Under the pieces are notes generated by a model that saw only the letters and a program-made list of their open reading frames with translations, was not told the DNA's origin and made no database searches. Below are positions 3,729-63,819 of a stretch of DNA of 63,954 nt, in pieces (the stretch's first letter is position 1; each line of letters opens with the position of its first letter). The position numbers were made by a program, and so were the translations under genes. Source of the DNA: Reclinomonas americana ATCC 50394 (lineage: Eukaryota); the NCBI GenBank assembly GCA_048213135.1, contig PS015119.1:53746-117699 (forward strand), read 5' to 3'.

Positions 3729-6700
3729 TCACGCTCGGGCACCGGTGCCCAAGCGACGAAGCCGATCCAGATACTCAGCCGTCAACTCCGGATACACCTC
3801 CTCCGCCTCCTCGTCGCCACCGTCTCCATCTTCGCCCTCTTCGTCATCATCGTCACTGTCACTGATCGCCCCAGACACTGTTTCAGACGCGCGTCAGTGC
3901 AACACAAAAACAATGACAGGGCACATTCTGTGCGGTCCAGTACCTCGCTGACCGGCAAGTCTGTGACGATTGAGCAGGCCCTGCACGCACACAAGTCACA
4001 CCAGCAAGATACGTACATGAGTGACCGAGAGCGACAAGGACATTGGAAGGGCAAAACGCACCGTGGCCGCCACCACCGACGAAGTGTCCTCCTCCAGTAC
4101 CGAAGCTGTGGCGTCGTCGGTGGTTTCGCTTAGGGCTCGCGAGGCGGCAGCCGACTCCACCAACGCGCCACTGCTGCTCCCCGAAACCGCGTGCCCCGCC
4201 CTCTCGGCAGACGCCACGCGACCTTCGCCAGTCAGGAATGCCATTTTCGCCGCCTCTTCGTCGGTGGTTGACACTTTGAAGTGGGCGAGTCTGTGCACCG
4301 CAAAGTGTTCGCTGAGTTTGCGCGGGGCGATTCAAGACAGAGTCGGTGGGCGTGCGCACACGAAACTTCATCTTCTCTGCAAATGTGCTCGGCGAGTCGA
4401 CCTCGGGATCCGACCGGCGACCAAACAACTTGCGCATGGTGAGCTTCTTGACCACCTGCGGCATAATGTCGGCCAGAATGTCTGCAAGCGCACGCAACAC
4501 AACTGAGAACGCGCGACGGGCCAGGTGAGCGCAAAACGATGAACACCACACACCCTTCTTCGCCTGCTCGCCAAACTCCTTCATCGTCCACGTGACGTCG
4601 TGATACACATGGGCGTGCAGGCGAAGTTTGAGCGAGTCAAAGTCTTTGAAGTCGCGTTCCTGTGTCGCATGGAACTCGATGAGTACACAGACACGAGCGC
4701 ACGCACAAATGCACGCTCAGTGAACGATGACCTTTGGGCCCTTGAAGGACAGCAACAGCGTGGTCTCCTGGATCTTGATGTAGTCAAAGGTCTTGTTGCG
4801 GCGAGCACGATCCTTCATCAGCTCCACAGACTGCTTGGTGTAGAGTCGGCGCTGTGGACTGAACAAGCTCTGTGGGCGCCGTCGCTCCACCGCCGTGGCG
4901 GGCGATGATGACAGCTGTGTGCGACTCGGCACATCGCGGAAACGCGAAACCGATCCACTCGGCTCCGACCCCGGCGACACGTGCGGTGAGTCGCTCGAGT
5001 GCAATGGCGGCAACAGCAGCGGTTGCTGCTGCAGATGCAAGTGCGGCGGTGGTTGATGGTGGTGGTGGTGGTGGTGTTGCGATGGTACTGGCGCTGGACC
5101 GACGTGCATCGCCGGCTCACTGGACACTGCGAGCGGAAATCCTTCCCTATCAGCACTGCGATCGACCACAACATGGAACGTGCGCCACGCCTTACCAGCA
5201 ATCACTTCCTCAAAGTCCGTCACGTACGACTCGGCCGTCTGCAACGACTGCGTGCGCTGTGGTGGAGTGCGACCAGTGCTTCGCGCAGTGGTACTCGGTG
5301 GCGTAATCGGTCCTGCGTTCACCACGACAGCCGCAGCCGTGGCCGCCGCCAGGGCCACCAGAGGGAGCGACGGCGATCCGCCATTCCACCCAACACGAGA
5401 GACGAGACTGGCTTTGGGACGCATCGCTTGCTGGGCCGCCAAGTGCGCCTCCAGCCACCCGGTGAAACTGCGGTGCGGCAGGTGAGACAGGTACATGGCG
5501 ACAAAGTGAAAAACAACATGTGTGCGACGCACCCAGGATGCCCAGTTGTAGGCCGAGAGGCGGAGACGGGGGTAGTCTGACTCGAACTCTGCGCACAACA
5601 CATTGTCTCCATTCAGTGACAAACTGGTGTCCACCCACCACAAGTACCGCCATGTGCGAGCTTCACCTTGCCGTCGGCCTCGGAGAAAAAGTACGACCAC
5701 AGTTCCAGGTACAAGTTGTACGTCAGTTGGATGCGCATGGGGAAGAGGATGACTTGGAACATCTCGAACACCTGGAGGGCATTGAGCACGGCGAGTCACA
5801 TCACGCTCATGGCCTTGCGGAAACGTACCGGAATCCGATTCTTTGGCGGCCGCTGGCGCACATTGAGTTGGAAAACGCCGTTCTTGGTCATGAGGCTCGA
5901 CTGCGCAGTCTCCAGCGACTGCAGCAGCTGCGGGTAGTACGCATTCGGTAGCCGATTCTGCGCCTCCATTCTCCGCACGCGCACCGAGAACTCTGCGTGC
6001 AGGCGTCAAGTCAGCCGTGACCTGCACGGGAATGCACATTCGCAAACATACGCAGCGATGACTTCCACCGGAAAGCAACTCGCCATCCACATTCACCACG
6101 TCCAACTTGGCACTGACAATGGGCTGATGACCTGAAGAATACGCGCACACACGCGCACGTGTCAGCACACACCCTCTGACAAGGAACGAAACAAACTGCA
6201 GCACAACTCTCGTCAATCAACGCCAGCTGCACCAGTGACACTTCGGCGGCAAACACCGTGTGAATGCCTTCGATCTGCGTGTGGTGCTTGTGCTCGGCCT
6301 CGAGACATGCACGCAAGTTCCGTTTCAGCACTTGCAGACGGTGCTGCTGGGCTGAGAGACGCGCCTGCAGCGTGTGCAAGTCGTCGATCTGCCAGAGGCG
6401 CACACTGTGAATATCGCCTTTCCCTCAGCAACCAAACGAGCACCGAGAAACGCAACCGTGTCCAGGTCCACATCCACATCCAGTTCAAACTGAATCGCCT
6501 CCTTCAGGCGATCTACGTTGCGCTCCAACGAGCGCACCATCTTGCTGAGTCGAAGCATTTGATCGTTGCGCCCTTGTCCCAGAATGCGGCTGAACACCAG
6601 CGTGTCCACCTGGTCACGGAAGGAGGAGGACGGTTGAGAACGACAGAGAGAAACGAAACACAGGCTGCACACCATGTCGCCGCACCTTGTCGTCCAGCAG

Positions 6701-16718: not shown

Positions 16719-17234
16719 ATGAGTGAGGCCAGGCGGACTGAGTGGTGCGCAGTGGTGTGTGAAGACTTGTGTGTAGCCAGTGGGGAGCCGGTGGGAGGTG
16801 GTACGCGATCGCAGAGTGAGAGCACATGTGACTGATATATATCGATATCGAGCTGACAAGAGTGGTTGGAACGGTGTGCAGCGAGCTACGGTCGCTCTGG
16901 TGGTGGCAGTGATCAAGTACTCGTGGCGGGAAGCAGCTGCATCGGTCAGCAGAACAACGAGCATCGGATGACGCGCAGTGACAGTGCCCCCGAGACCTCG
17001 GCTGTCTGTGGACCTTCTCCTCCTGCATGTGCAGGCAACAACGGTCGCAGCAGTGGTCGGCGTGCACATGAAGCACTCTCCTTCATCGCCCTGTCAGATC
17101 TAGACCTGAAACCAGACGTGTTTTACACATGCACGTGCACGCACGACCAGTTCGATCTCCTTTACACGACCAGATATGAGCCTGTCCGGTGGAGTAGCTT
17201 GCCCCCGCCTACACCCACCGAGGAGGCGACGTAG
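16719..17234 (+). CDS. Small hypothetical protein (about 114 aa, 3 exons), divergent from BLTP2
   Basis: ATG at 16719. Phase-1 GT-AG introns at 16801-16881 and 16945-17034 keep the frame to TAG at 17234 (MSEARRTEWCAVVCEDLC...LKPDVFYTCTCTHDQFDLLYTTRYEPVRW). No homology recognised. Confidence 0.4.
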
Positions 17235-17314
17235 ATGGAGAAGGTGAAGGGAAACTGAATGAAAACGGACGAAGATGTTCTGTAAATCACCAAACACACA
17301 CCCTTTCTTTCATC

Positions 17315-19359
17315 ATGCGTCGCGCACTGACTGAGGCCGAGTGGACCGAGCTGTGCACAGTGGTGTTTGGCGACTCGTCTGTGGCGGCCGATGGAGTGTG
17401 GAACCTGCAAGGCTTCTCGTACTTGGCAGAGGAGGTGGGCTTTGAGCAGGCGCGCAATGGACCGTGTGGAGTGCTGGCCGCCGTGCAGTGCCACTTACTC
17501 AATGAGTTGGTGTGGCCAGCGGGCGATGGTGAGTTGCAGGAGAGAGCGACTGTGTGTGAGAGAGAGTCTGACCACGCGTGTGTGAGCATGCAGAGAGCGT
17601 GTGTGGCTCGTGGAAGGGCGTGAGTGCGGATCGGCGATCAGTGGCGCTCATGGCTGCAGTGATCAAGTGTTTGCGGCAGGCAGCAGCACCGTCGTCATCG
17701 CTGCTTCGTGTGATGGTGCCTGCAGATGAGGTTTGCATCCATTCTCATCTTTGCCTATCTCTCTCTCACTCTCTCCCTCGTCTGCCTCTGATTGCGGTGC
17801 ACGCAGAGCTCTGGCAACGTGTTTGCCGACTCGGTGCGCCCTCCATCGGTGCTGGAGACAGTGTGTGTGTTGGAGGTGCCAGTGGAGAGTGCCGACGAGC
17901 TGCGACGCGCCTTGCTGCCGTTCGTGCATGTGTTGGAGCAGCCGGGCGGCTTGCTGTTATTCTTGTACTCGCTGGTGTTGACGCGAGGTGTCGAGCAGGT
18001 GTGCGCGACACGCTGGTGAGGTCTTCTCCCTGTGTGGTGGTTGCTTATCGATGTTGGATGCAGATTCGACGAGACATGTCGCAGGATCCGACGCAAAACT
18101 TCTTTCACGATTGCTCGTTGGTGGCCACCGACGATGGCTTCTGCACGCAGGCGGTGACGAACTTGGTGATTGCCGGGCGCGCTTCGTTTGACGTGCGCGA
18201 GGATTTCTCCGATGTGAGTCTTTGCGTCTTGTGGATGCCTGCTCTTCTATTGACGCTCTCCGTGCAGCACCCGCCCAGCGTCGGTCTGTTGGCTCTGGAG
18301 GAGGCCGAGTCGAGGGGAGTGGTCACCGTTGGGCACGTGCTCAAGCGACCCAAGTGTCCGTGCTGGGTCGTCGAAGGCGCTGGCCACTACACCACCTTGT
18401 GTGCGCTGCAGGCAAGTGATTCATGTCAGGCGATGCCCCCCGTCCCGTCTGACTCGTGTTCTCACGATGTATGGAGGTCAGCCGGTGGTTTCTGCACCCG
18501 AGAATCCTGGTGTTCCGGTGTCGTTTTTGGCCTACAACGGCCTGCGACCGGGCGGACCGCGCTTTGTCGAGTTCCAAGCGGATCTCGGCACGCTCGACGT
18601 GACGCGCACCTCTCTCGTGCGCTTGTCGGATTCGTCTCCCGTGCCACCCCCACCGCCAGCGGCACCACCGGCACCCGACACGGTCGCCAGTGAACCGGGC
18701 CCATCGTCGTCGTCGTCGTCGTCGTCTGCAGCGAGTGGCAGTGGCGCGACGATGAAACCCGGAGTGCACGTGCAAATGATTGTGTCGCGTGAAAGGAGCT
18801 CCGTGGACGGTACGTGGTTGTACGAGGTGGCCTGTTCCGTCAAATTGCCACCTCCACGTCAACCGTCACTCGGCATGCTGCTTGACGAGAGCGCTCCCGA
18901 CGGCATTCCCTGGTTCGATCGCATGGGCACTGGTGAGGAATGCTGATGCCTTTTGTGCTTTCGCTCACCCAGACTCTTTCGCTCACCACGCCTACGCCCA
19001 GTGGTTCGACACGAATGGGAGGTTGGTGTACCGCGGCCGAAATGGCGCTGTGCGCACTGCACGCTACTGCCCGATATTTGCTGGAGCGCGTACCACGAGC
19101 CGGATCACATTCTGTGCACCGAGTGCCTGCTTCCGATTGAGGAGTGCGGCCGCACGCTTTGGTTGCCGTACGAAATGCTGCCAATGTCGGCCAAGGTAAC
19201 GTTTCTCTCTGCTGACAAGGTGGGTGTCGATACTCATCACTCGTGCTGCACTAGCGACGAGTGGACGATACGTATGCGCCGCCCATCGCCCGCGTGTTGC
19301 GCACCCGATGGCCCGAGGCACGCATCACACATGCTCCTGAGCCACCGCCATCATTGTAG
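17315..19359 (+). CDS. MINDY-3/4 (FAM188)-family deubiquitinase with an inserted C4 zinc finger
   Basis: Catalytic motif GFEQARNGPCGVLAAVQ, plus LFLYSLVLTRG, FCTQAVTNLVIAGRA, VGHVLKRPKCPCWVV..GHYT, YNGL and a C-terminal VLRTRWP. Stop TAG at 19357-19359. Confidence 0.88.
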
Positions 19360-32000: not shown

Positions 32001-33968
32001 TTTTTCCTTCTGTTCTCACCCCCATTTTTTGTGCGGTGCAGGACCGACGACGTGGAATTCAAGTTGCACGATCAGAAGAGCCGACTGACGGCAGAGCACG
32101 AAGTTGCGCCTCTGGTCCCCCACTGCAGCATGCAGTGCGCTCTTGCTAATTATGTGTGCGACGCAGGGTGCCATGAGGAAGCTCGAGCAGAGCAAGAACG
32201 ACGAGATTGCACGACTGACTGCGGAACTCAACACCGCCAAGAGCCAATCGGAGGCCAGCAGCCGCTCGCTGCAGTCTCAAATGCAGGAGGAACTCAGTCG
32301 TATGCAAGCGGTGCGTGCTATAATGCTGCAATCCTGTGAATATCAATCTCACCGTGCGTGTGCCCTCGGCAGGAGTTGGAAAGAGTACGCGCCGCGGAGC
32401 AGGGCTCCAAAGACGCACTGCAGCGCAAGCTGGAGAGCGACTTGGCACAACTGCGCTCACAGTTGCGCCCACCCCACTTGTCGTGCTTTGTCTCTCGATG
32501 ATTCGAGTGCTCAATTGCTGCGCTGCGTGCAGACATGCGGCCGAGTTGCAACGTGTGCGTGAAGAGGGTGAGAAGCAGTTGCGCGACGCCGTGGCCAAGG
32601 CGCAACGCGAGGGCGACGATCGTGTGGAGGCCGCAAAGCGTGAGCTGCAGGCGCAGATGCAGGCTGCACTGGCGGTCAGTGTTCATCAGACTGAATAGTT
32701 TGCTGGTTCTTCGCAAAAGCTCACCTGGTTTGAAACGTGTGCAGGATGCCAAAAACAAGGCCGACCAGGCCCTCAGCAAGGCGGCTTCTGACATGGCCGC
32801 GGCCAAGGACGCCGACAAGAACAGTGCGCTCGAAGCGTTGCGAGCGGAATTTGCTCGCGAGAAGCAGGCACTCACGGCTCAGCATGCCACCGTGCTGGCC
32901 GACTGGGAGCGGCGCAAGAGCGAGTGGGCAAGTGAAAAGACCGCCCTCGAAGGCGACAAGACGCGCCTGACGGTAATGCCACTTGCGAACTCGATATGTT
33001 GTTGTTTTGGATGACTTGACTGAGATCTGGCTGGCGCAGAACGACGTGCATCGCGTACAATCGCAACTGTCGCAGCTGGAGAACGACTTGCAGACGGCCA
33101 ACAACGAAATCAGAAGACAACTGAACGAGATGATGGAGACGAAGCGGCAGTTGGTGGATGAGATGGCTCAGCGCGAACGCGAGCTGAAGCACGAGCGAGA
33201 TCGTGCACTGGCCGCTCTCGATGCCTCCCACCAAGGCGTGATTGCACGCATGAATGAGGACTTTGGTCGGGCACGCGAGCTGTTTGAGCAAAAGGACGCG
33301 CTGTGGGCGCAGAAGTTGCGGCGCACGCGCTTGGCTGAGGGGTATGAAGATGAGAATGATGATGATGATGCTCACTGTGTTATTCTGTGCCTTCACCAGA
33401 TATGCGGAACTGGAGGACCGCTGGATGCATCGCGAGAGCCGCCCCGAGGACCTGCAGCTCATTCACGATCTGCAAGAGGAGCTTGGCATGACGCAGGAGC
33501 GACTGGCCAAGGCCATCGAGGACATGAAGCTGTACAAGTTGGAGCTCATCAACCGCGAGGAGTCCTACAACAAGACCTTTGGCAGATCGCCCACTGTCGG
33601 CGTGATGAACCCGGTGGGCGGCAGTAACAAGTCCAACGGCAGCGCTTCTGGTGCCGGCAAGCCGCTGCAGAAGCAAAAATCGGCCACCAACGGCATGCAG
33701 CTGGGAGGTATTCCCGGTGGCCTCCCGCCTGTGCCCTCGGCCGCTGGCAGCAGCGGCCGAGCGCCAAGTGTGACACGTACTGGCCCCGCAGGTCCCTCTA
33801 GGTGAGTGGGTGGGAGTCGGGCGAAATTCACTGCACGTGTGTGTCGATAGTCTCTAACCGAGAACAGTCGGTGGTAATTCTTTATGTTCGTTGGTGTGAC
33901 TGAGCAGGCCACCATCGGTCACCAAGGCATCTGGGTCAACGACTCCGACTCGCCTGCCCCCTAGTTGA
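29083..33968 (+). CDS. FAM184-like coiled-coil protein
   Basis: The spliced N-terminus MSKKIAQLTKVIYHLNTQND and the C-terminus RESRPEDLQLIHDLQ...MKLYKLELINREESYNKTF are FAM184A/B hallmarks. All introns were traced in frame to TGA at 33966-33968. Confidence 0.85.
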
Positions 33969-34045
33969 CAATGTTATGTGAAAAGAAAGCGAAGAAGACG
34001 AGAAAAAGTAGTGTGTGAAATTCGAATGAAAAATGTTGTGCGTGT

Positions 34046-35766
34046 TTACTCATTGAAGCGGGCGGGTGAGAATGGTCGCAAGTCGAACAACGAGCACTCC
34101 CCGTCCAGCAGCAACTCGGCGACAGCAGCACCGGTGGCAGGGGCGTTGAGGATTCCTGGATTGAGGGAAAGAGTGAGATGGCAGAGAAGGATAAGGAATG
34201 GCAAGTGAAAGGCAGACCCCAGCATGAGTGGCCCGACACCATGTGGATGGTGTTGTGGGAACCAGTCAGTGGCCCGACAATGGGCACATCGTCGTCGGTG
34301 GTCGGCAGGAAGCAGGCCTGGATGGTGTCGACGACGGCACCGCCCTCCTCCGGATCAAGCGCGGTGGAGATGGAGGCCGCCACGTGCTTCAGTACCTGTG
34401 GCAACGAATTGATGGTGAGTGGCGAGTGAAGAGGAGACTCGGGAATAGCATGCACCTCGGCAGACGCGGCATCTGGCTCGACTTCGTCGGGCGATGAGGG
34501 CTGCATGCAGGAGAAGATGAGAAGCTCGTTGCATGACACAAGCGCACTCTCGCACTGCTGCCTCACCAGTACAGCACTCCGGTTCGAGGCACCACAGATG
34601 TAGACCTTGCCCGAGGGACGTGGATAGACCTCGGGGTCGGCGTGGCTGCCGTTGGCCAGGGTGAAGTTGAGGAAGAGGGCGGTGCCACTGATGGGGCGTG
34701 CGGGCTCCAGCACAATCGAGTGCGCCTTGAGACCACCGACGCGCGGCACCTGGATGCCGTACTGCTCGAGCTCCCATTCGTCGAGCACGCACCCCGTCCA
34801 CGGCCCCATGGCCAGCACTGCTCGTGCACGTGCGCGGTGAGCGCAAGAATTTATTTGCTTCTTCTCTCAGCACCTGCCACTCACCCACAGTGTCGCACTC
34901 AATAGGCTCGTCGCGCCCATCGACCAACACCCCTCGTGCACGCCCATCGGCCTCCTACTCGCACCAAACACGGTCACAGACAACCGCACAGACGACAGCC
35001 ACACTCACGCAGACTGACGCGCGCGCACCACTCGCAAACCCGTGGCCCGACCGATGACCAGCTCGCACCGCCCAGTGGCCACCGCAGCCTCCATCAACGC
35101 CTCAGTCAGCTTGCACGGATGCACCTGTGCCGTGGTGTCGGGCGTGCCCAGCTGCTCCACCTGCGTCGGCGGCACACGACCATCCAGCCACTCGAGCGGA
35201 CGCTCCTGTGCAGACAACTTGACCGAGGGCGCCACCACGGGCTTGGCGCCGGCCGCACGCTGCTTCGGTGCACGCTCCGATGCACTCACAGACAACTGTG
35301 TGGTGAGGCACGATGAGGAGAAGGGCAGCGATCGCAGCGAGGAGGAGAATCACCGTCTCCAGTCGACGGTACTCGATGTTCTCCGCGCCAAAACGATCCG
35401 CCAGTGTGTTGTGTAACCTGCTGCAGTGGTGAGCACGCACAGAGGAGCAACGGAGGCACGGAAGACGTGACGCACTCGAACGAGATTCGAGCCATGGCTG
35501 CAGACAGAGAGCGAGAGAATATGCGCATAAATGCACGAGTGGAGGCGTGTGGAGGAAGACAAAGAGTGATGCACGCAACGACCCACTGGACCGCCATCGC
35601 ACCACGACTTGGCGAGGAATCCGCCTGCACGCGCAGAGGCAGCCGCCGCCACTCGTGAGCGTTCGAGGCAAATGACGCGCACAGTGGCCGCCTGTGGATG
35701 CGTGCACAGGTGGTAGCAGATGCTGCTGCCAATGACACCGGCGCCGATAACACAGATGGTGACCAT
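34046..35766 (-). CDS. FAD-dependent oxidoreductase, DAO family (yeast Tda3-like)
   Basis: Rossmann motif ICVIGAGVIG, plus AASARAGGFLA, TTAQVHP, VVLAMGPW, DPEVYPRP, QACFLP and GHSCWGILNAPATG. Confidence 0.88.
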
Positions 35767-55409: not shown

Positions 55410-56270
55410 NNNNNNNNNNNNNNNNNNNNNNNNNNNNNNNNNNNNNNNNNNNNNNNNNNNNNNNNNNNNNNNNNNNNNNNNNNNNNNNNNNNNNNNNNNN
55501 NNNNNNNNNNNNNNNNNNNNNNNNNNNNNNNNNNNNNNNNNNNNNNNNNNNNNNNNNNNNNNNNNNNNNNNNNNNNNNNNNNNNNNNNNNNNNNNNNNNN
55601 NNNNNNNNNNNNNNNNNNNNNNNNNNNNNNNNNNNNNNNNNNNNNNNNNNNNNNNNNNNNNNNNNNNNNNNNNNNNNNNNNNNNNNNNNNNNNNNNGAGA
55701 GAGAGAGAGAGCTAGAAGCAGTGAGGATGCTGGGGAAGATGCGAGAGAGTACAAGTGGGAGCAAGAGTGAACGAGCAAGAGGGAGTGAGACAAGAACAGT
55801 GATTGAGTGAGTGTGTGGAAAGGGAGCAGGTGAGTGGCGAAGCGAGAGAGAGTGGGAGCAAGAGTGAACGAGCAAGATTGTGAATGAGGGCCCGGTGAGT
55901 GAGATGAGGCTGTATGTGGAGAGGGAACGGAGAGAGAGAGAGAGAGAGAGAGAGCAAGAGCGAACGAGCAAGATTAATATGAGGCAGTGTGTGGAGAGGG
56001 AACGGGTCATGAGTGGCGGAGCGAGGGAGGGAGTGAGGGTGCTGGGGGAGGGGCGAGAGAGTGGGAGCAAGAGTGAACGAGCAAGATTGTGAATGAGGGC
56101 TCGGTGAGTGAAATGAGCAGTGTGTGTGGAGAGGGAACGGAGAGAGAGGGGGGATAGAGTGATGGTGCTGGAGAAGATGCGAGGGACGGGGAGTGCGAAC
56201 GAGCAAGAGGGAGTGAGGCAGTGATTGAGTGATCATGAGTGAGGGAGCGGGGGAGTGATGCTGTCGATGA
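55320..56270. repeat. Purine-rich (GA) complex tandem repeat or minisatellite, with an internal gap
   Basis: The unit agtgggagcaagagtgaacgagcaaga occurs at 55754, 55851 and 56060. gtggagagggaacgg and gtgaatgagggc also recur. Confidence 0.8.
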
Positions 56271-56707: not shown

Positions 56708-59700
56708 TCACTTTCCTCGTGGATGTGCACCCTTGCGCCGTGTGCGCGGAGGTGCGCCGTCGTCCACATTGTCGTCTGCGTCGAGCTGCAGCCGGCGCTT
56801 GCCATCGTTGGATCCGGGTTGGCGTGACGCTGGTGCGGTTACATGAACAGCTGCTGCAGATGATTCTGATGGCGGTGGCGGAGGAGATGGCGGAGGTGGT
56901 GGCAGTGGAGTTGACGGTGGAGGAGGTGGCGGTGGAGGTGCAGCTGCCGACAATGTCGACGTAGACGATGGTGCTCCTGCACCTGGCCGCACGCGCGGCA
57001 CAACAATGACGACGCAACACGTGTTCTTGGAAGCCGACTTGTCTCGGCCGACCGGCTTCCCGTACAGTCGACACATGGTGTTCCCGCAAGTCAACACTTT
57101 TTCGTACTTGGGCCGCGGACGGAATGGCGTCCCACAGCTGCACAGCCTCGTGGTGTGATATTCGGCAGGCTGGAAAAAGTAGATTGGCTTCAGACCAAGC
57201 AGTTTGCGCCGGGCATTGATGTTCTCGATCTACACGCGATGTGAGCAACAAATATATACTGGACAAGCCACGACACGCACCTCTCGTTTCAGTTCCCGAA
57301 TAAACTGTCCGTGCCCAGCGTAATGCAAACCCCTGACTGTCACTCTCGCAAGTCCACGCGCCCGCACCTCCAAAGTGCCGTCAACGGCGACGCGCAGAGT
57401 GAAGCGCGACGACATGTCGTTGGACGAGCGACTGAAGTCAGGAGCTCCAATCGCCGTAATGTGCGTCACAATGCTACGCAGTTCGTGCACGGAGTCAGTC
57501 AGCTGCTGAGCAATAAAAGACAGTGGGGGTGACAAGCGCGCGCAACAACTTGATAATGTCGGCCAAGCAGACATCGCGCGTGCGACACATCGCTCTCCAC
57601 TGGTTGATGTGGCGACGGTGGCACTCCAGCACCACCGAATCTGGCGCCAACACAGTGCCATAGTTTGCTGGTCCGTACGCTTGTTGAACGAGGTACGCGC
57701 GGTCAGCAGCCGGAACAAGGTATTTGCTCGGCACGTTTTTGCCAAACTCAATGTGCGTGCCCGTGCGACCTGTATGCAGTACGTGTGAACAACAATGCCA
57801 CATGCAATGACACATGTGCGCCCACTTGTAAACTCACCCCCTCCCACACACTGCGCTGTTCGAAGTGTGCGAATCCCACTGTCGTCAACCATGAGGCGCT
57901 CGCGCTCAGGCCGGATCTCGCCATACAACAGAAGAATCCTCCACTCGCTGGCAGAGCGATCGATAGCCTCGCTTCCCAGCCGTTGGAGCATCGCCTTGTA
58001 CCCCGATTCCACCACCCACGCAGCGGGCGCGGCGCCACGTCCCCGCTGACACTGTCGTTCCCAACCGTCTGGCTGTTGACGCGGAGCAGGTGATGCGTGG
58101 TCGCACTCGCCGGTCGTCAGGGCACGAAGGAGAACGCTACGTGCAAATGAACAAACCACTGCAGCAAAAAGAATAAAGGTTAAGCGTTCTGCCCGTCACT
58201 CGAATTCATCCCCGAGCCATGCGTACACAAATACCTGCGCGACGTTGCTGCACGCCATGGCCAGCCACGCCGCGGCGCCCCACTTCTTCGATCGCCTTCA
58301 CAACCTCACGGACGTCATGCCGCCCGTTGGCCACAGCATCGCGGCGGCTCGTCACCGTGTCCACATACTGCTGGTGGAGCAGTGCAAGACGCACATTGTA
58401 TGGGTCGACAGTGCCGGGCAAGTCTGCCTCAAACGGGATCATGTCAAGCCTCGTCTCGTTCTTGGCACGCCACACAGCATCGCCTCGCGTCTCAATTACG
58501 AATCGTCTGGCGCAGTCATTCACACGGCGTCGAAGACCACTCGCTGCCTCTGTTGCCTCGCGTGCATCTGATTGCAGGAGTCGGTGAGAGAGGAAACGAG
58601 ACTGATGCGCGCAGGAATGACGATCGAGGGAGAAGGGAAGGAGGGAGTAGAGAAGGAGGGAGGGAAGGATAGAGGAGAGGAGGGAACAAAATCTGGACTG
58701 TTTAGATGCACATCCCATCGACACTCACCGAGGAGCAACCATTCTGCTGTCGCTGAATTCGACATAGTGGTACGCTTGCAGTTGTTGCCGGTGGTGAGAA
58801 TCGTCCAGTTGCGCTGGCATTGCATATCCGCTGCACAGCAAAGCAGCACATGCCGATCGAGAGCGTGCGTGAGCGAAGGATCGAGAAAGAGAGAGAGAAA
58901 AAGAGAGATTCACGCGATGCGTCAGCTCACCTGCGACCACCTGCCAGCACACTGCCGTCCTGCATGCGCTCGTAACCGCCGCAGCCGAGCTCTTCAACCG
59001 CGTCGCAGCAACCTGCACCGCATCGTACAAGCCAAGCTCCTCTGGCGGCAGATGAGACCGCATTAGCAGTCTGGATGCCGCCCGTTGTGCCAGTACCGTC
59101 TGTGGGCCATGCTTGCGGTTGCGGGCACGTGCCGGACCGACGAAACTCGGCGCCGTCAGCAGCGCATCCACAAGCAGCCGCTCAGCTGTTGTTGAACTAC
59201 CCGGTGGGCACGACGCTGATGCAGCATCCAGAGCATCTTCCAACTGAATGGCGCACGACAGTATGCGAAAGGCGTGCTGCGTGGCGTTGTGCAGGAACTC
59301 CACAAGCGCGCCTGACACCTCCGCCGGCACACAAAGGAGGCGAGCGAAAACATGCACATCGGCAACGTCGATCTGCTGCTGCTCGTCGACATCCCACTTG
59401 AAGAGTGACACACAGAGGGCGACAACAGGATCGTTCTTCTCGTCGGCTCGACCCAGCAGCGCCTCGACGGTGGCGAGTGTGAGTGTGCCGTCCTGCAGGA
59501 CGGAGTCGATGCGCTCCTGTTGCTCACGTGCGTGCTTTTGCTGTTCCTCCATATATCTGATATGGAGACCGAGCGCTTGCTTCATAGTCCCTCGTGCCGC
59601 AACTTGGGCTGTTCCGACGGCGACTGCAACACAAAAACGACAGACATGAGTCACAAGAACCTCTGGATCCGGATCCATGGCCAGACCGGACGTGCACAAC

Positions 59701-61468
59701 AGTGTGAGTTGAGAGAGAGAGAGAGAGAAAAAAGGGGGGGGAGGGTACGTGAGAGTGGAGTGAAGAGAGCTTGTGTGTGTGTGTGTGTGTACATGTTGGC
59801 AGTGATCACGAGTGACATGAGTTGGAAGAGACAGAGCAGCAGAGGAGCAAGAACGTGCGTCGCATGGAGGAGAGAGATGGGAAGAGGGACTGAGAAACTT
59901 CGACACACACCGTCCACCTCCGTGATCATCGCCGAGAAGCACGCCGAGACATGAATGGAGAGGAATTCCACCGCCACTGCTGCTGCTCGGGCAAACTTGC
60001 ACACTGCCGCCGGATAGTCCGCATCGTAAATACCGTGGCCAGTAGTAGAGATATGACCGATGGCTTTCCATGCGATGGCTGCATCAATCTGGTCAACACA
60101 ACAACTCGCCACATATCGCGCGATCGAACGGTGTCGACCACACTCACCCAGTGCGTTCGCAACATCCTTGCCAACCTCGTACTCGGTGCTGCTCGCCGAC
60201 GACGAAACCGAGGCCACGGCTCGCAGCATTGCAACGACCACCGGTTGTCCCGCTGTCGTGACCCTCACGTGTTTTTGCACAGCGGTTTCAGCCGGCGCCT
60301 CGCCGCCGGCCACATGGACAAGCGCACGTGGAATCAGGTCACTAACGGCAACCATCAACCCGAGGAGGCCGGCATTCGGCAACACAGGCAGCGGTTGTGG
60401 AGAGCAATCGTGGCCGATGGCGTTGTTGAGGTCCGTGAACGACTCGGAAAGGCTGTCGGACGCACGAGACGTCCAGGCAGCAGCAGTGCATCCGGGCGAG
60501 ACGATGAGCGAGTCGAGTTTCATCGCCGTCGCCCGACATTCTGCGCTCACATCGACAGCATGTCGAAGAGCTGAGGCGAGCTTGCAGCCCTGCACCACCG
60601 CCGATACTTGGCCCTCCATGTGCTCGCGCTCGCCGCTACTGGTGTACACCGACAGGAGCTCCGTAGCACGCTCCGTCGCCATCGCCGAGAGCATGTTACA
60701 ACGGTTTCTCAGCTGGCACAAGTAGTTGGTCGGTGTCTCGGCAACTGACGCGGCGTGATCAAGCATGTCCGAGTCGGCGTCGGCGTGGCCACCAACATTG
60801 GCGTCATCCATTTCGGCGTCGGCGTGGCCGGCAACATTGACGTCAACCATTTCGGCGTCGGAGTCGCCAGCTGCAATGTCGACCATTTCGGCGTCGGTCG
60901 TCTGCTGCGAGCCAACACCGAGAACTTGAAGCATGATTTGTCTCTTCACGGTGGGAATGCTGCAAAGACTGTCGAGGCCAGTGATCTGCAATGTTCCACC
61001 ACCTAACACATACACACAATCAGTGATTGCCCGTACAATCATCAAAGACACAGAGGCGTCAGTGCGCGTGATCGCTCTCACCACGCAAGGTCTGGATGGC
61101 GACGTCCTGAAGCACACGAGGCAACGTACTCGCTGTCGGCGCCGCTTGCAACTGCTGTTGCAACAAACGTGTCGAGGGGTAGCGGGCAAATGAGACGTGC
61201 CAGATGCGCAAGTCAGCGAGCGTCTTTGGCGCATCGGCGAACGCCGGTGCCTCTCTCGCGCTCGCGCTCGCCCGTGTCGACTTCACGGCGACCAACAAGC
61301 GTCGCGTCGCATCGAACAGCATTGGTGGCAACGACATGAGCTCCCCCTCCAGAGACAACATGTCGTCATTGACGCTGTGTCGAACGTCTCCTTGTCGCCC
61401 AGTTGCAACACGCGACACGCTGTCAAGCAACAAACTGCGCAATGGGAGAGAGAGAGAGAGAGAGAGAG

Positions 61469-61524
<56 letters not shown>

Positions 61525-63819
61525 NNNNNNNNNNNNNNNNNNNNNNNNNNNNNNNNNNNNNNNNNNNNNNNNNNNNNNNNNNNNNNNNNNNNNNNNNNNN
61601 NNNNNNNNNNNNNNNNNNNNNNNNNNNNNNNNNNNNNNNNNNNNNNNNNNNNNNNNNNNNNNNNNNNNNNNNNNNNNNNNNNNNNNNNNNNNNNNNNNNN
61701 NNNNNNNNNNNNNNNNNNNNNNNNNNNNNNNNNNNNNNNNNNNNNNNNNNNNNNNNNNNNNNNNNNNNNNNNNNNNNNNNNNNNNNNNNNNNNNNNNNNN
61801 NNNNNNNNNNNNNNNNNNNNNNNNNNNNNNNNNNNNNNNNNNNNNNNNNNNNNNNNNNNNNNNNNNNNNNNNNNNNNNNNNNNNNNNNNNNNNNNNNNNN
61901 NNNNNNNNNNNNNNNNNNNNNNNNNNNNNNNNNNNNNNNNNNNNNNNNNNNNNNNNNNNNNNNNNNNNNNNNNNNNNNNNNNNNNNNNNNNNNNNNNNNN
62001 NNNNNNNNNNNNNNNNNNNNNNNNNNNNNNNNNNNNNNNNNNNNNNNNNNNNNNNNNNNNNNNNNNNNNNNNNNNNNNNNNNNNNNNNNNNNNNNNNNNN
62101 NNNNNNNNNNNNNNNNNNNNNNNNNNNNNNNNNNNNNNNNNNNNNNNNNNNNNNNNNNNNNNNNNNNNNNNNNNNNNNNNNNNNNNNNNNNNNNNNNNNN
62201 NNNNNNNNNNNNNNNNNNNNNNNNNNNNNNNNNNNNNNNNNNGAGAGAGAGAGAGCGGCGAGCGGCAATTCAGGGTCACGACAATGGCTCGCTGGTGGAC
62301 AACTACACACATATACTCTCTCTCTCTCTCTCTGTCACTCACCGAACAGACGGCGACAGGCCAGGCCCATCAACGGCGGCCATGGACTCCGCCAACGCTG
62401 TCTCCTCCAATTTCAACGTGGAGAGGCGGTGTGAGGCACTCGCGTGTGTGACAGCAACGCGACCAGCGCGTCCGATTGTGGCCAAAGTCCACGCACAACT
62501 CGCGCACGCGCTCACAGCTTGTGGGCGCAACACCGATGCACACGCTAGTGAGCAACAGCACATATGTGTGCGTGTGACGATGGGAACACACGTACCTCCT
62601 CGAGTGGCAACCGCCGGGTCGCGTTCCTCCTCCTCCTCCTCCTCGGCCTCCTCCTTCTCCGCCGCATCCTTGTCGGCCTGCTTGGCCTTCTTCTTCTCCT
62701 CCTCCGCCTCCTCCTCGTCGTCCTCACGCGGTGGCGGAGAATGGTGCAACGCGTTGCGCTCGCGCTGGATCAGTTGTGCGACCTGGCTCATGACATCGCA
62801 TACCGCCGCAGTTGGATCCACGTTATCACACACCGTTTGCACCAGCTTCTGGGCGCTCTTGCTGGCCTTAACGTGCCAGCTTTTGATGTGGGCCGTCGTT
62901 GTTGTGATGGCTCTGGCCCAGAGAAGAATCTCCTCACCGATCCTCGTCATGCCCGGAGACAGTTCAGGATGCGTTGCGGCGACAACGCAAGTTGCAGCCG
63001 GTGCGGGTGGAGCTTGCGCACGAGGCCTTGAAGCAGCAGGTGCTGCACAAGAGCGTTGGTTAGAAATGACGTCGGCAGAAGTGTGCGTGCAGAGCGAGGG
63101 ATGCGCTGCAAACCAGCAGGTGTGGTGTTCTTGCCCGTCGCCTTTTCCTTCGTCTTCTTCTTCTCCTCTTCCTCCTCCTCCTTCTTGCTATCCTCACTCG
63201 ACGTGCTGCGCCGCTCGGAGGGGAAAAGTGCACCGAGCAACTTGGTGCAATGGTCCTCTGCTCGTTGAAAAACACAGTCAGCAAGCACGCATGTGTGGAG
63301 TGCACGTGCATGCGCAGAGAGGTCTGGCCACGAAACTGCATTCTTGCACGCCTTTGTCGATGTCGGCCGCCAGTTTGTAACACGAGTCTTGCAAACTCGT
63401 AACGACTGTTGGGAGGCGGGCTTCCGGCACGACTCGAGACTCTGCATGTCGCGGTGGTTATCATGAGTTCCTTGTCCGACGGAGTATATATCGACATCAT
63501 GCCAAAGTATCACGGCTCGAGTGCGCACCTTGGCTCACTGCGAGCAGCTCAAAGATCACACGAATGAGGTGCACAAATGCCGCGTGCCCATCCGCTAGCG
63601 CCGTTCTCGCCACCTCCAAGTCCGCGTTTTCTTTCAACAGCGGAATCTGCTTGAGAAACGCGTCCAACACCGTGTCATGGTTTGCCGTGGCGCCACGACG
63701 ACCAGCCGCACGAGGCCCTTGGTAGGCGAGTGCCATCGCCAGAAACAATGAGTTTCTCTGGGAGTCTCTGAGAGCAGAAACGGAGGCATCCTCGGCAATG
63801 GTCGCTGTGAGCGGTGCAA
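56708..63819 (-). CDS. Giant intron-rich Fanzor/TnpB-like RuvC nuclease (at least about 1,650 aa; 5' end beyond window)
   Basis: Exons 63819-63529, 63405-63337, 63257-63114, 63042-62596, 62517-62343, 61419-61082, 61002-59911, 59623-58931, 58830-58729, 58567-58235, 58158-57838, 57769-57573, 57505-57281 and 57229-56708 join in one phase-consistent frame through GT-AG introns. The C-terminus contains RLMVDDSGIRT (RuvC-I), LTDSVHELR (bridge-helix-like), GHGQFIRELK, PAEYHTTRLCSCG (RuvC-II plus zinc ligands), CGNTMC and GRDKSASKN (RuvC-III). Confidence 0.8.
60775..60900 (-). repeat. Coding tandem repeat (about 36-39 bp; DAEMVD/DAEMDD units) inside the Fanzor-like gene
   Basis: ccatttcggcgtcgg occurs three times. 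Translation: DAEMVDIAAGDS-DAEMVDVNVAGHA-DAEMDDANVGGHA-DADSDM. Confidence 0.85.
61446..61524. repeat. (GA)n/(TC)n microsatellite in an intron of the Fanzor-like gene, abutting a gap
   Basis: Direct observation. Confidence 0.9.

Follow-up and report, generated by a model that had tools for sequence, protein, structure and literature searches.

Does the intron-containing gene on the minus strand of a Reclinomonas americana ATCC 50394 scaffold encode a Fanzor, that is, a eukaryotic RNA-guided nuclease of TnpB type? The gene lies in a 63,954-nucleotide (nt) stretch of assembly GCA_048213135.1 (contig PS015119.1, positions 53,746 to 117,699), here called the window, whose own numbering is used throughout. 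A first-pass annotation, made from the DNA letters, had proposed that 56708-58158 carries a spliced Fanzor module with an apparently intact D-E-D triad. To our knowledge, Fanzors are the only eukaryotic RNA-guided DNA nucleases, and they are under development as compact genome editors. Judged from its sequence, the gene most probably belongs to the Fanzor lineage of TnpB-derived RNA-guided nucleases and would work most like its members; we give a probability of about 0.6 that it is a true member of this lineage with a complete RuvC fold. Whether it is still an active RNA-guided nuclease appears doubtful to us.

The similarity to TnpB was found at the C-terminal end of the predicted protein. 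Library scans were run separately on five exon pieces, not on the spliced protein. For exon 4, the last exon, the only family reported by NCBIfam was NF040570 (guided_TnpB), with an E value of 0.0073 and 15.6 bits, over positions 340-386 of the 389 in the profile. In the ESM Atlas, 25 of the 30 feature neighbours of exon 4 carried PF07282 (top score 0.93, 165 shared features), and the best of the five neighbours lacking this domain was automatically named IS transposase (OrfB). Two weak matches were returned when exon 4 was searched against PDB with phmmer, ribosomal protein L31 (E 0.11) and then Cas12p (E 1.7), and the second was located at the zinc-ribbon and RuvC-III end of Cas12p itself. 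Moreover, tblastn against phage genomes gave six weak records, the best two of which were one cyanophage 'transposase' (E 0.05). The fetched phage protein scored 98.5 bits on NF040570 and was confirmed as a TnpB.

We collected 87 relatives of the phage TnpB-like protein for local profiles; these are TnpBs, and no Fanzor sequence is among them. The collection (P0001-P0087) is a mostly cyanobacterial clade of TnpB-like proteins of 370-700 amino acids (aa), for one of which the source gives the name type V CRISPR-associated protein C2c8. A simple pattern match showed proline between the D and the G of the RuvC-I D-x-G in 68 of 81 clade members, and the canonical glutamate is kept in the clade sequences inspected (P0001 and the block consensus).

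When compared with the 87 TnpBs by hhalign, the product of exons 1 to 4 aligned over 76 columns with an E value of 9.1e-5, and the full 815-aa model gave 2.1e-4; with 23 small TnpBs, 69 columns were aligned at E 4.8e-4. Among the 1237 open reading frames (ORFs) that the six frames of the window contain, that of exon 4 ranked first (E 0.0076; runner-up 0.13). The real segment scored 13.7 bits; the highest score was 4.3 among 2000 full shuffles and 5.9 among 2000 shuffles in which the cysteines were held fixed, so that no shuffle reached the real value. In a MAFFT alignment with 31 TnpBs, invariant columns landed on C672, C674, C690, D705 and A708. An AlphaFold2 model of an 85-aa piece of exon 4 alone, made with no alignment, had a pLDDT of 58, and a Foldseek search with this model returned only rows at E>1 with unrelated folds. 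Taken together, the sequence comparisons support TnpB/Fanzor homology for residues 625-711 only, a segment which spans intron 3, and they support a TnpB/Fanzor-type module, encoded by exon 4 and the end of exon 3, with the last RuvC helix, strand 5, a zinc ribbon of four cysteines and RuvC-III.

Reading the minus strand and joining exons by script, we recovered the three GT-AG introns at the coordinates given in the first-pass annotation: 57837-57770 (68 nt, GTGAGT...CAG), 57572-57506 (67 nt, GTCTGC...CAG) and 57280-57230 (51 nt, GTGCGT...TAG). The four exons form a single open frame down to a TGA at 56710-56708, all the peptides quoted in the annotation are present in the spliced product, and the D, E and D codons lie where it had placed them (GAC 57883-57881, GAA 57163-57161, GAC 57043-57041). 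Its upper limit, 58158, directly adjoins the end of a further canonical intron at 58234-58159 (GTATTT...pyrimidine tract...CAG), and two more upstream GT-AG introns, 58728-58568 and 58930-58831, hold the frame open to an ATG at 59678. The gene is probably larger than the four exons proposed, with seven exons from 59678 to 56708 on the minus strand, 2448 nt, 815 aa, zero internal stops and six GT-AG introns of 51-161 nt. The features of this model are given below; the table behind the codon log-odds was trained on four ORFs of the window that have Pfam support, and the value of the model frame is set against those of the other two frames.

58931-59678, minus strand: predicted exon A, aa 1-249, with the ATG at 59678-59676; codon log-odds +0.135 against -0.281 and -0.182.
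58831-58930, minus strand: predicted intron A, 100 nt, GTGAGC...CAG.
58729-58830, minus strand: predicted exon B, aa 250-283; the model frame scores best.
58568-58728, minus strand: predicted intron B, 161 nt, GTGAGT...CAG.
58235-58567, minus strand: predicted exon C, aa 284-394; codon log-odds +0.127 against -0.316 and -0.368.
58159-58234, minus strand: proposed intron C, 76 nt, GTATTT...CTTAAC...pyrimidine tract...CAG.
57838-58158, minus strand: exon 1, aa 395-501, with a candidate RuvC-I strand carrying the only suitably placed D-x-G (D487-S-G); no profile supports it.
57881-57883, minus strand: GAC codon of D487, the candidate RuvC-I aspartate and second D of VDDSG, assigned by motif only.
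57770-57837, minus strand: intron 1, 68 nt, GTGAGT...CAG.
57573-57769, minus strand: exon 2, aa 502-567; codon log-odds +0.109 against -0.046 and -0.19.
57506-57572, minus strand: intron 2, 67 nt, GTCTGC...CAG.
57281-57505, minus strand: exon 3, aa 568-642, with the IGAPDF motif and a candidate helix; the TnpB-like alignment starts with the last 18 residues of this exon.
57442-57440, minus strand: codon of P589 in IGAPDF, candidate replacement of the canonical RuvC-II glutamate, by eye.
57230-57280, minus strand: intron 3, 51 nt, GTGCGT...CTCAC...TAG.
56708-57229, minus strand: exon 4, aa 643-815 and TGA, with strand 5, the alternative glutamate, zinc ribbon, RuvC-III and a proline-rich basic tail.
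57023-57334 (intron 3 included), minus strand: TnpB-similar segment, aa 625-711, from hhalign and the shuffles.
57161-57163, minus strand: GAA codon of E665, the E of PAEYH, at the Fanzor-type alternative glutamate position.
57071-57142, minus strand: zinc ribbon CxC...Cx4C, with C672 at 57142-57140, C674 at 57136-57134, C690 at 57088-57086 and C695 at 57073-57071.
57041-57043, minus strand: GAC codon of D705, the D of GRD in the RD motif, aligned to the invariant RuvC-III aspartate of TnpB.
56711-56998, minus strand: C-terminal tail, aa about 720-815, with proline runs, basic clusters (KRR at 786, RRK at 806) and atypical codon bias.

No Pfam match and no recognisable domain were found in exon A, and we infer from the sequence that it is joined to the downstream exons. 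The basic clusters of the tail may have a role in nuclear import.

We found that the model frame was the best of the three in seven of eight exon segments, including exon 2 in the frame given by the first-pass annotation; the exception was the proline-rich tail. The G+C content was 47-53% in the introns and 55-64% in the exons, with the three upstream introns and exons measured 1-2 bases off their final boundaries. If nothing is spliced out, one minus-strand frame can be read without a stop from exon 1 to exon 3, across introns 1 and 2 and, out of frame, exon 2; it forms an ORF of 321 codons at 57230-58195. Because this open frame also links exons 1 and 3, openness alone is no proof of introns 1 and 2, and an ORF scan would report a plausible but partly wrong protein at this place. 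Codon bias favours the spliced reading over this ORF. The last three bases of intron 3 would form an in-frame stop if the intron were retained, and the TnpB alignment continues past the junction; the boundary between exons 3 and 4, across which hhalign runs, is the sole splice site with homology evidence. An antisense gene over the locus was also considered and rejected, since the plus-strand ORFs there showed no coding bias (codon log-odds of at most +0.057, negative in seven of nine).

The superfamily motif given in a section of Bao and Jurka 2013 (PMC3627910) reads D-X(125,275)-[TS]-[TS]-X-X-[C4 zinc finger]-X(5,50)-RD, and in the Reclinomonas protein the corresponding elements are D487, 180 residues, T668-T669-R-L-C672, four cysteines, eight residues after C695, and R704-D705. 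D487 is the sole D.G at 125-275 residues upstream of the TT-x-x-C motif, and this upstream aspartate is the weak part of the match. According to passages of Yoon et al. 2023 (PMC10711439), Fanzors are marked by DPG in RuvC1, 'near exclusively DPG', and by a glutamate six residues before the zinc finger which replaces the canonical one about 50 residues upstream. Exactly six residues lie between E665 and C672. In the 82 of the 87 TnpBs which carry [TS][TS]xxC, the column of E665 holds A, P, S or G and is acidic in none. The glutamate of ApmFz2, Glu467, is likewise described as shifted towards the C terminus in a portion of PMC11832414, the Fanzor glutamate has been described in the loop that connects strand 5 to the TNB domain, and RD follows the zinc finger in the superfamily as outlined in part of PMC3627910. 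Because the spacing of E665 and the RD after the finger fit these published positions, the glutamate and the second aspartate are placed as in a Fanzor-type site. The second knuckle, Cx4C, is shared with 61 of the 82 TnpBs. Furthermore, the canonical glutamate position in Fanzors is occupied by proline or glycine according to an excerpt of PMC10530073, with which P589 of IGAPDF would be consistent when placed by eye rather than by alignment.

Two members of the proposed D-E-D triad, E665 and D705, therefore hold positions that Fanzors use, and the third, D487, was assigned by motif only. Because exons 1-3 were recognised by no method, the first member of the 'intact D-E-D triad' comes from a single motif. 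The series of TnpB/Fanzor motifs fared in a similar way: strand 5, the zinc ribbon and the RuvC-III end were borne out, and RuvC-I, the bridge helix and RuvC-II were recognised neither by profiles nor by PDB searches nor by ESM features. Some of the motif wording has to be corrected, as the protein reads DSG and not DPG, CxC and not CxxC, and RDKSASKN with S for the N of RDxNA.

Several results weigh against placing the gene in the Fanzor lineage. The 15.6 bits on NF040570 compare with a cut-off of 100, PF07282 (OrfB_Zn_ribbon / Cas12f1-like_TNB) and PF01385 had no match at E<=10 in the five exon pieces, and PHROGs gave nothing related. Therefore, the profile search that the first-pass annotation had suggested as a check, made on the exon pieces, returned no curated profile above threshold; in NCBIfam, nothing relevant was found for the other four of the five pieces. 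No library profile (Pfam, NCBIfam, PHROGs) recognised RuvC-I or RuvC-II in exons 1-3, where RuvC-I, the helical region and strand 4 would be expected. Sequence searches of exons 1, 2 and 3 against PDB returned nine, two and zero matches, all unrelated, with no TnpB, Cas12 or Fanzor among them; ESM features, searched for exon 1 alone among these exons, gave no family; hhalign of the middle region found nothing; and hidden Markov models of the RuvC-I and RuvC-II blocks, built from the 87 TnpBs, scored nothing at the proposed sites. The N-terminal halves of Fanzors are described as highly diverged in a passage of PMC3627910, and for this reason the non-recognition of exons 1-3 is weak counter-evidence. 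At the level of motifs, DPG occurs nowhere in the 815 aa, and DSG is the sole D-x-G at a suitable place; all 82 TnpBs have CxxC as the first knuckle, which reads CxC in this protein; RuvC-III reads RDKSASKN, with S in place of the N of RDxNA / D-x-N-A-A; and a string search of the 815 aa did not find the tripeptide TDG, the WED mark of Fanzor1, a group also characterised by kinked REC2 helices.

The searches for relatives and for a mobile element point in the same direction. With exon 4 as the query, phmmer found no hit at E<=0.001 among 1.84 billion representative proteins, and a word-based search against longer proteins yielded 32 scored candidates, none at E<=0.01. Pattern matches in metagenome contigs (261) and in viral contigs (17, then 580) were all left unconfirmed. 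Of 16 such matches in genome contigs one was 'confirmed', in Streptoalloteichus tenebrarius; we rejected it as a chance match of 22 residues in a high-G+C frame with no TnpB features. Within the 64-kb window there is no second copy, no terminal inverted repeat beyond CT/GA/CA microsatellites and no Rfam match. Neither a transposase nor a recombinase domain turned up in the long ORFs scanned at 50-64 kb, a scan which small or split genes could escape, and the 321 nt 3' of the stop codon are no more stable than shuffles (z +0.47). In Fanzor and TnpB systems, the guide RNA (omegaRNA/reRNA) sits at the gene's 3' end and extends to the right end of the transposon, with defined element ends and several copies. 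A Pfam match to AAA_11 (SF1 helicase) at 62339-63187 on the minus strand (E 0.0077, below the cut-off) falls in a glutamate/lysine-rich low-complexity stretch; it is probably spurious and was not taken as a Helitron-type helicase. The gene looks host-style and intron-rich, which fits either an old Fanzor insertion with acquired introns or a domesticated derivative; intron gain by old insertions is described for many Fanzors in a section of PMC10530073.

These observations leave room for other explanations. The gene might be a domesticated or degenerate host gene which kept only the C-terminal TnpB/Fanzor module, fused it to an unrelated or unrecognisably diverged N-terminus and lost RNA-guided cutting; by analogy with bacterial TnpB-derived regulators, such a protein could serve as an RNA- or DNA-binding factor. 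This is unlikely in our judgement, and yet much of the evidence would suit it: only aa 625-711 are recognisable, the single copy in 64 kb shows none of the transposon hallmarks, the six introns and the codon bias are host-like, erosion is seen in the motifs (DSG, CxC, S for N), the protein is extended by long N-terminal sequence and by a proline-rich tail, and the failure to find any relative in 1.84 billion proteins fits fast or long divergence. Against this, E665, D705 and all four cysteines are kept, a plausible RuvC-I strand carries D487 at the right distance, and the high divergence of Fanzor N-terminal halves reported in that passage of PMC3627910 means that their non-detection is expected. 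Loss of activity is not indicated by E665 and D705, because both are retained. Quite unlikely, from the sequence features at hand, is the further reading that the gene is a single-copy, host-integrated Fanzor descendant of a deep and so far unsampled branch, kept by the host as an RNA-guided nuclease or binding protein and not as transposon cargo; its marks would be the DSG in RuvC-I, the CxC knuckle, the about 480 extra N-terminal residues and the proline-rich basic tail.

It is also very unlikely that an unrelated eukaryotic gene mimics the TnpB zinc ribbon and RuvC-III by chance with a cysteine-rich stretch. The absolute scores are indeed weak (15.6 bits, E 0.0073, in one of five pieces and one of three libraries), the top PDB match of exon 4 is another zinc ribbon, that of ribosomal protein L31 (E 0.11), the 165 shared ESM features fall just under the 170 typical of true family matches, and the candidate was chosen by eye from a very large scan. 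However, several partly independent methods converge on one family out of thousands, the alignment reaches beyond the cysteines over 69-76 columns, shuffles with fixed cysteines attain at most 5.9 bits against the real 13.7, and the glutamate and the RD stand at family-specific positions. Finally, the apparent introns could be debris with frameshifts or stops that lies between GT and AG by chance, in a decayed and originally intron-free Fanzor pseudogene. Frame-restoring GT...AG pairs are easily found, and the open unspliced frame connects exons 1 and 3 as well. We nevertheless regard this decay as highly improbable, given that all six interruptions are GT...AG, each with a pyrimidine or CTNAC-like element (by eye) and with G+C below that of the exons, that the exons carry host codon bias in the frame which the splicing model needs (seven of eight segments), that intron 3 ends in an in-frame stop and still the TnpB alignment crosses the junction, and that the conserved host gene MINDY in the window has the same type of intron.

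We thus return to the Fanzor lineage as the best explanation. The C-terminal third of the gene would derive from a TnpB/Fanzor RNA-guided nuclease, a RuvC-I strand would end in D487, and P589 would occupy the canonical RuvC-II glutamate position, the last two as read from motifs only. If these motif readings are right, D487, E665 and D705 would form a Fanzor-type triad. If it works like its relatives, the protein would bind a guide RNA that is encoded in the 3' region of its own gene. Target recognition would then require a short adjacent motif together with a sequence complementary to the guide, and the single RuvC site of the protein would cut the DNA.

A member of the family which sequence search links to none of 1.84 billion proteins would widen the known sequence space of Fanzors. 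If it is single-copy and maintained by the host, it would be a lead to the domestication of RNA-guided nucleases in eukaryotes, and if the reading as a deep branch were true, it would be a eukaryotic counterpart of the bacterial TnpB domestications. As it stands, the gene is an ordinary find, a divergent Fanzor-like gene with introns, both of which are already documented. The novelty seen by the first-pass annotation in a spliced protist nuclease was overstated, as intron-bearing Fanzors of protists and algae are already in print (in a part of PMC10530073).

The window, part of a draft eukaryotic scaffold, has ten runs of N, about 58% G+C and eukaryote-type genes for Hobbit/FMP27, a MINDY deubiquitinase and a DAO oxidoreductase; no tRNA was found in it. 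A gene fragment of the Hobbit/FMP27/BLTP2 family lies at 4717-6216 on the minus strand (E 1e-5), and a fragment of a FAD-dependent oxidoreductase (DAO) at 33961-34866, also on the minus strand (E 6e-7). The MINDY-3/4 deubiquitinase gene at 17198-18690 on the plus strand is split over at least two ORFs, which match positions 2-73 and 163-274, respectively, of the Pfam profile PF13898. They are joined by a 65-nt intron at 17529-17593 (GTGAGT...CTGAC...CAG), which served as the reference for the intron style of the genome.

Directly downstream of the Fanzor-like gene, a GA/CT-rich minisatellite at 55700-56250 adjoins the N run at 55410-55696. It contains an 80-nt block twice (55829-55908 and 56038-56117, spaced by 209 nt, 89% identity) as well as shorter related units, and its minus strand forms long open serine/leucine-rich frames that are improbable as genes. 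Upstream of the gene, a 39-nt tandem repeat at 60774-60897 (3.3 copies, 83% matches) sits in the long minus-strand ORF 59651-61282 and encodes acidic units of the DAEMVD type. This ORF may be a separate gene or may hold further 5' exons.

How does the gene compare with known systems? The triad is D383/E541/D606 in SpuFz1 (Fanzor1) and D324/E467/D501 in ApmFz2 (Fanzor2), and the spacing of the candidate triad, 178 and 40 residues, compares with 158 and 65 in SpuFz1 and with 143 and 34 in ApmFz2. Like Fanzors, the gene is eukaryotic and intron-bearing, its TnpB-type zinc ribbon lies between RuvC-II and RuvC-III, a glutamate lies in the loop that leads into the zinc finger, six residues ahead of the first cysteine, and RD follows the finger. 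Published Fanzors have up to about 9.6 introns per kb, as stated in a passage of PMC10530073. Unlike Fanzors, it has DSG and not the near-exclusive DPG, a CxC knuckle, S for N in RuvC-III and no TDG; about 480 residues precede RuvC-I, the tail is proline-rich and the total length is 815 aa; and transposon ends, a partner transposase and a guide RNA were not found in the window. Placement in Fanzor1 or Fanzor2 is impossible because there is no detectable sequence relative. The assignment to Fanzor2 and IS607 in the first-pass annotation has found no support: Fanzor2 is encoded in IS607-type elements beside a serine-recombinase TnpA, no recombinase or transposase domain was seen in the long ORFs scanned, and 815 aa with six introns contrast with a TnpB-like size.

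The best measurable sequence matches are the prokaryotic and phage TnpBs (NF040570; the 'transposase' WHL30630.1 of Cylindrospermopsis phage Cr-LKS4; Cas12p, PDB 9jfs), reaching 28% identity over 57 residues in the case of WHL30630.1. They have in common with the Reclinomonas protein the order [TS][TS]xxC...Cx4C...D-x-x-A-x-x-N. In contrast, these TnpBs keep the canonical glutamate, have CxxC and no introns, and their RuvC-I and RuvC-II are recognisable but cannot be aligned to the Reclinomonas gene.

Among the eukaryotic cases, the gene resembles CrFNuc, the Fanzor1c of Chlamydomonas reinhardtii, in being a spliced Fanzor of a unicellular eukaryote; as reported in sections of PMC10530073, CrFNuc is present in six copies in its genome, carried by Helitron2 elements, and a 3' non-coding RNA has been detected for it, whereas a single copy lies in our window, where nothing comparable was found; the cleavage activity of CrFNuc could not be shown. 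The bacterial TnpB-derived RNA-guided transcription factors described in part of PMC10705468 are an earlier example of a TnpB descendant which no longer cleaves and has turned into a host factor; they are prokaryotic, whereas the Reclinomonas gene is eukaryotic and retains the glutamate and the aspartate at catalytic positions. Non-canonical triads are also in print, as GtFz1 has N at the third position. Altogether, spliced Fanzors, alternative-glutamate sites and non-canonical triads have already been published, and this gene is a very divergent addition to them and no new kind.

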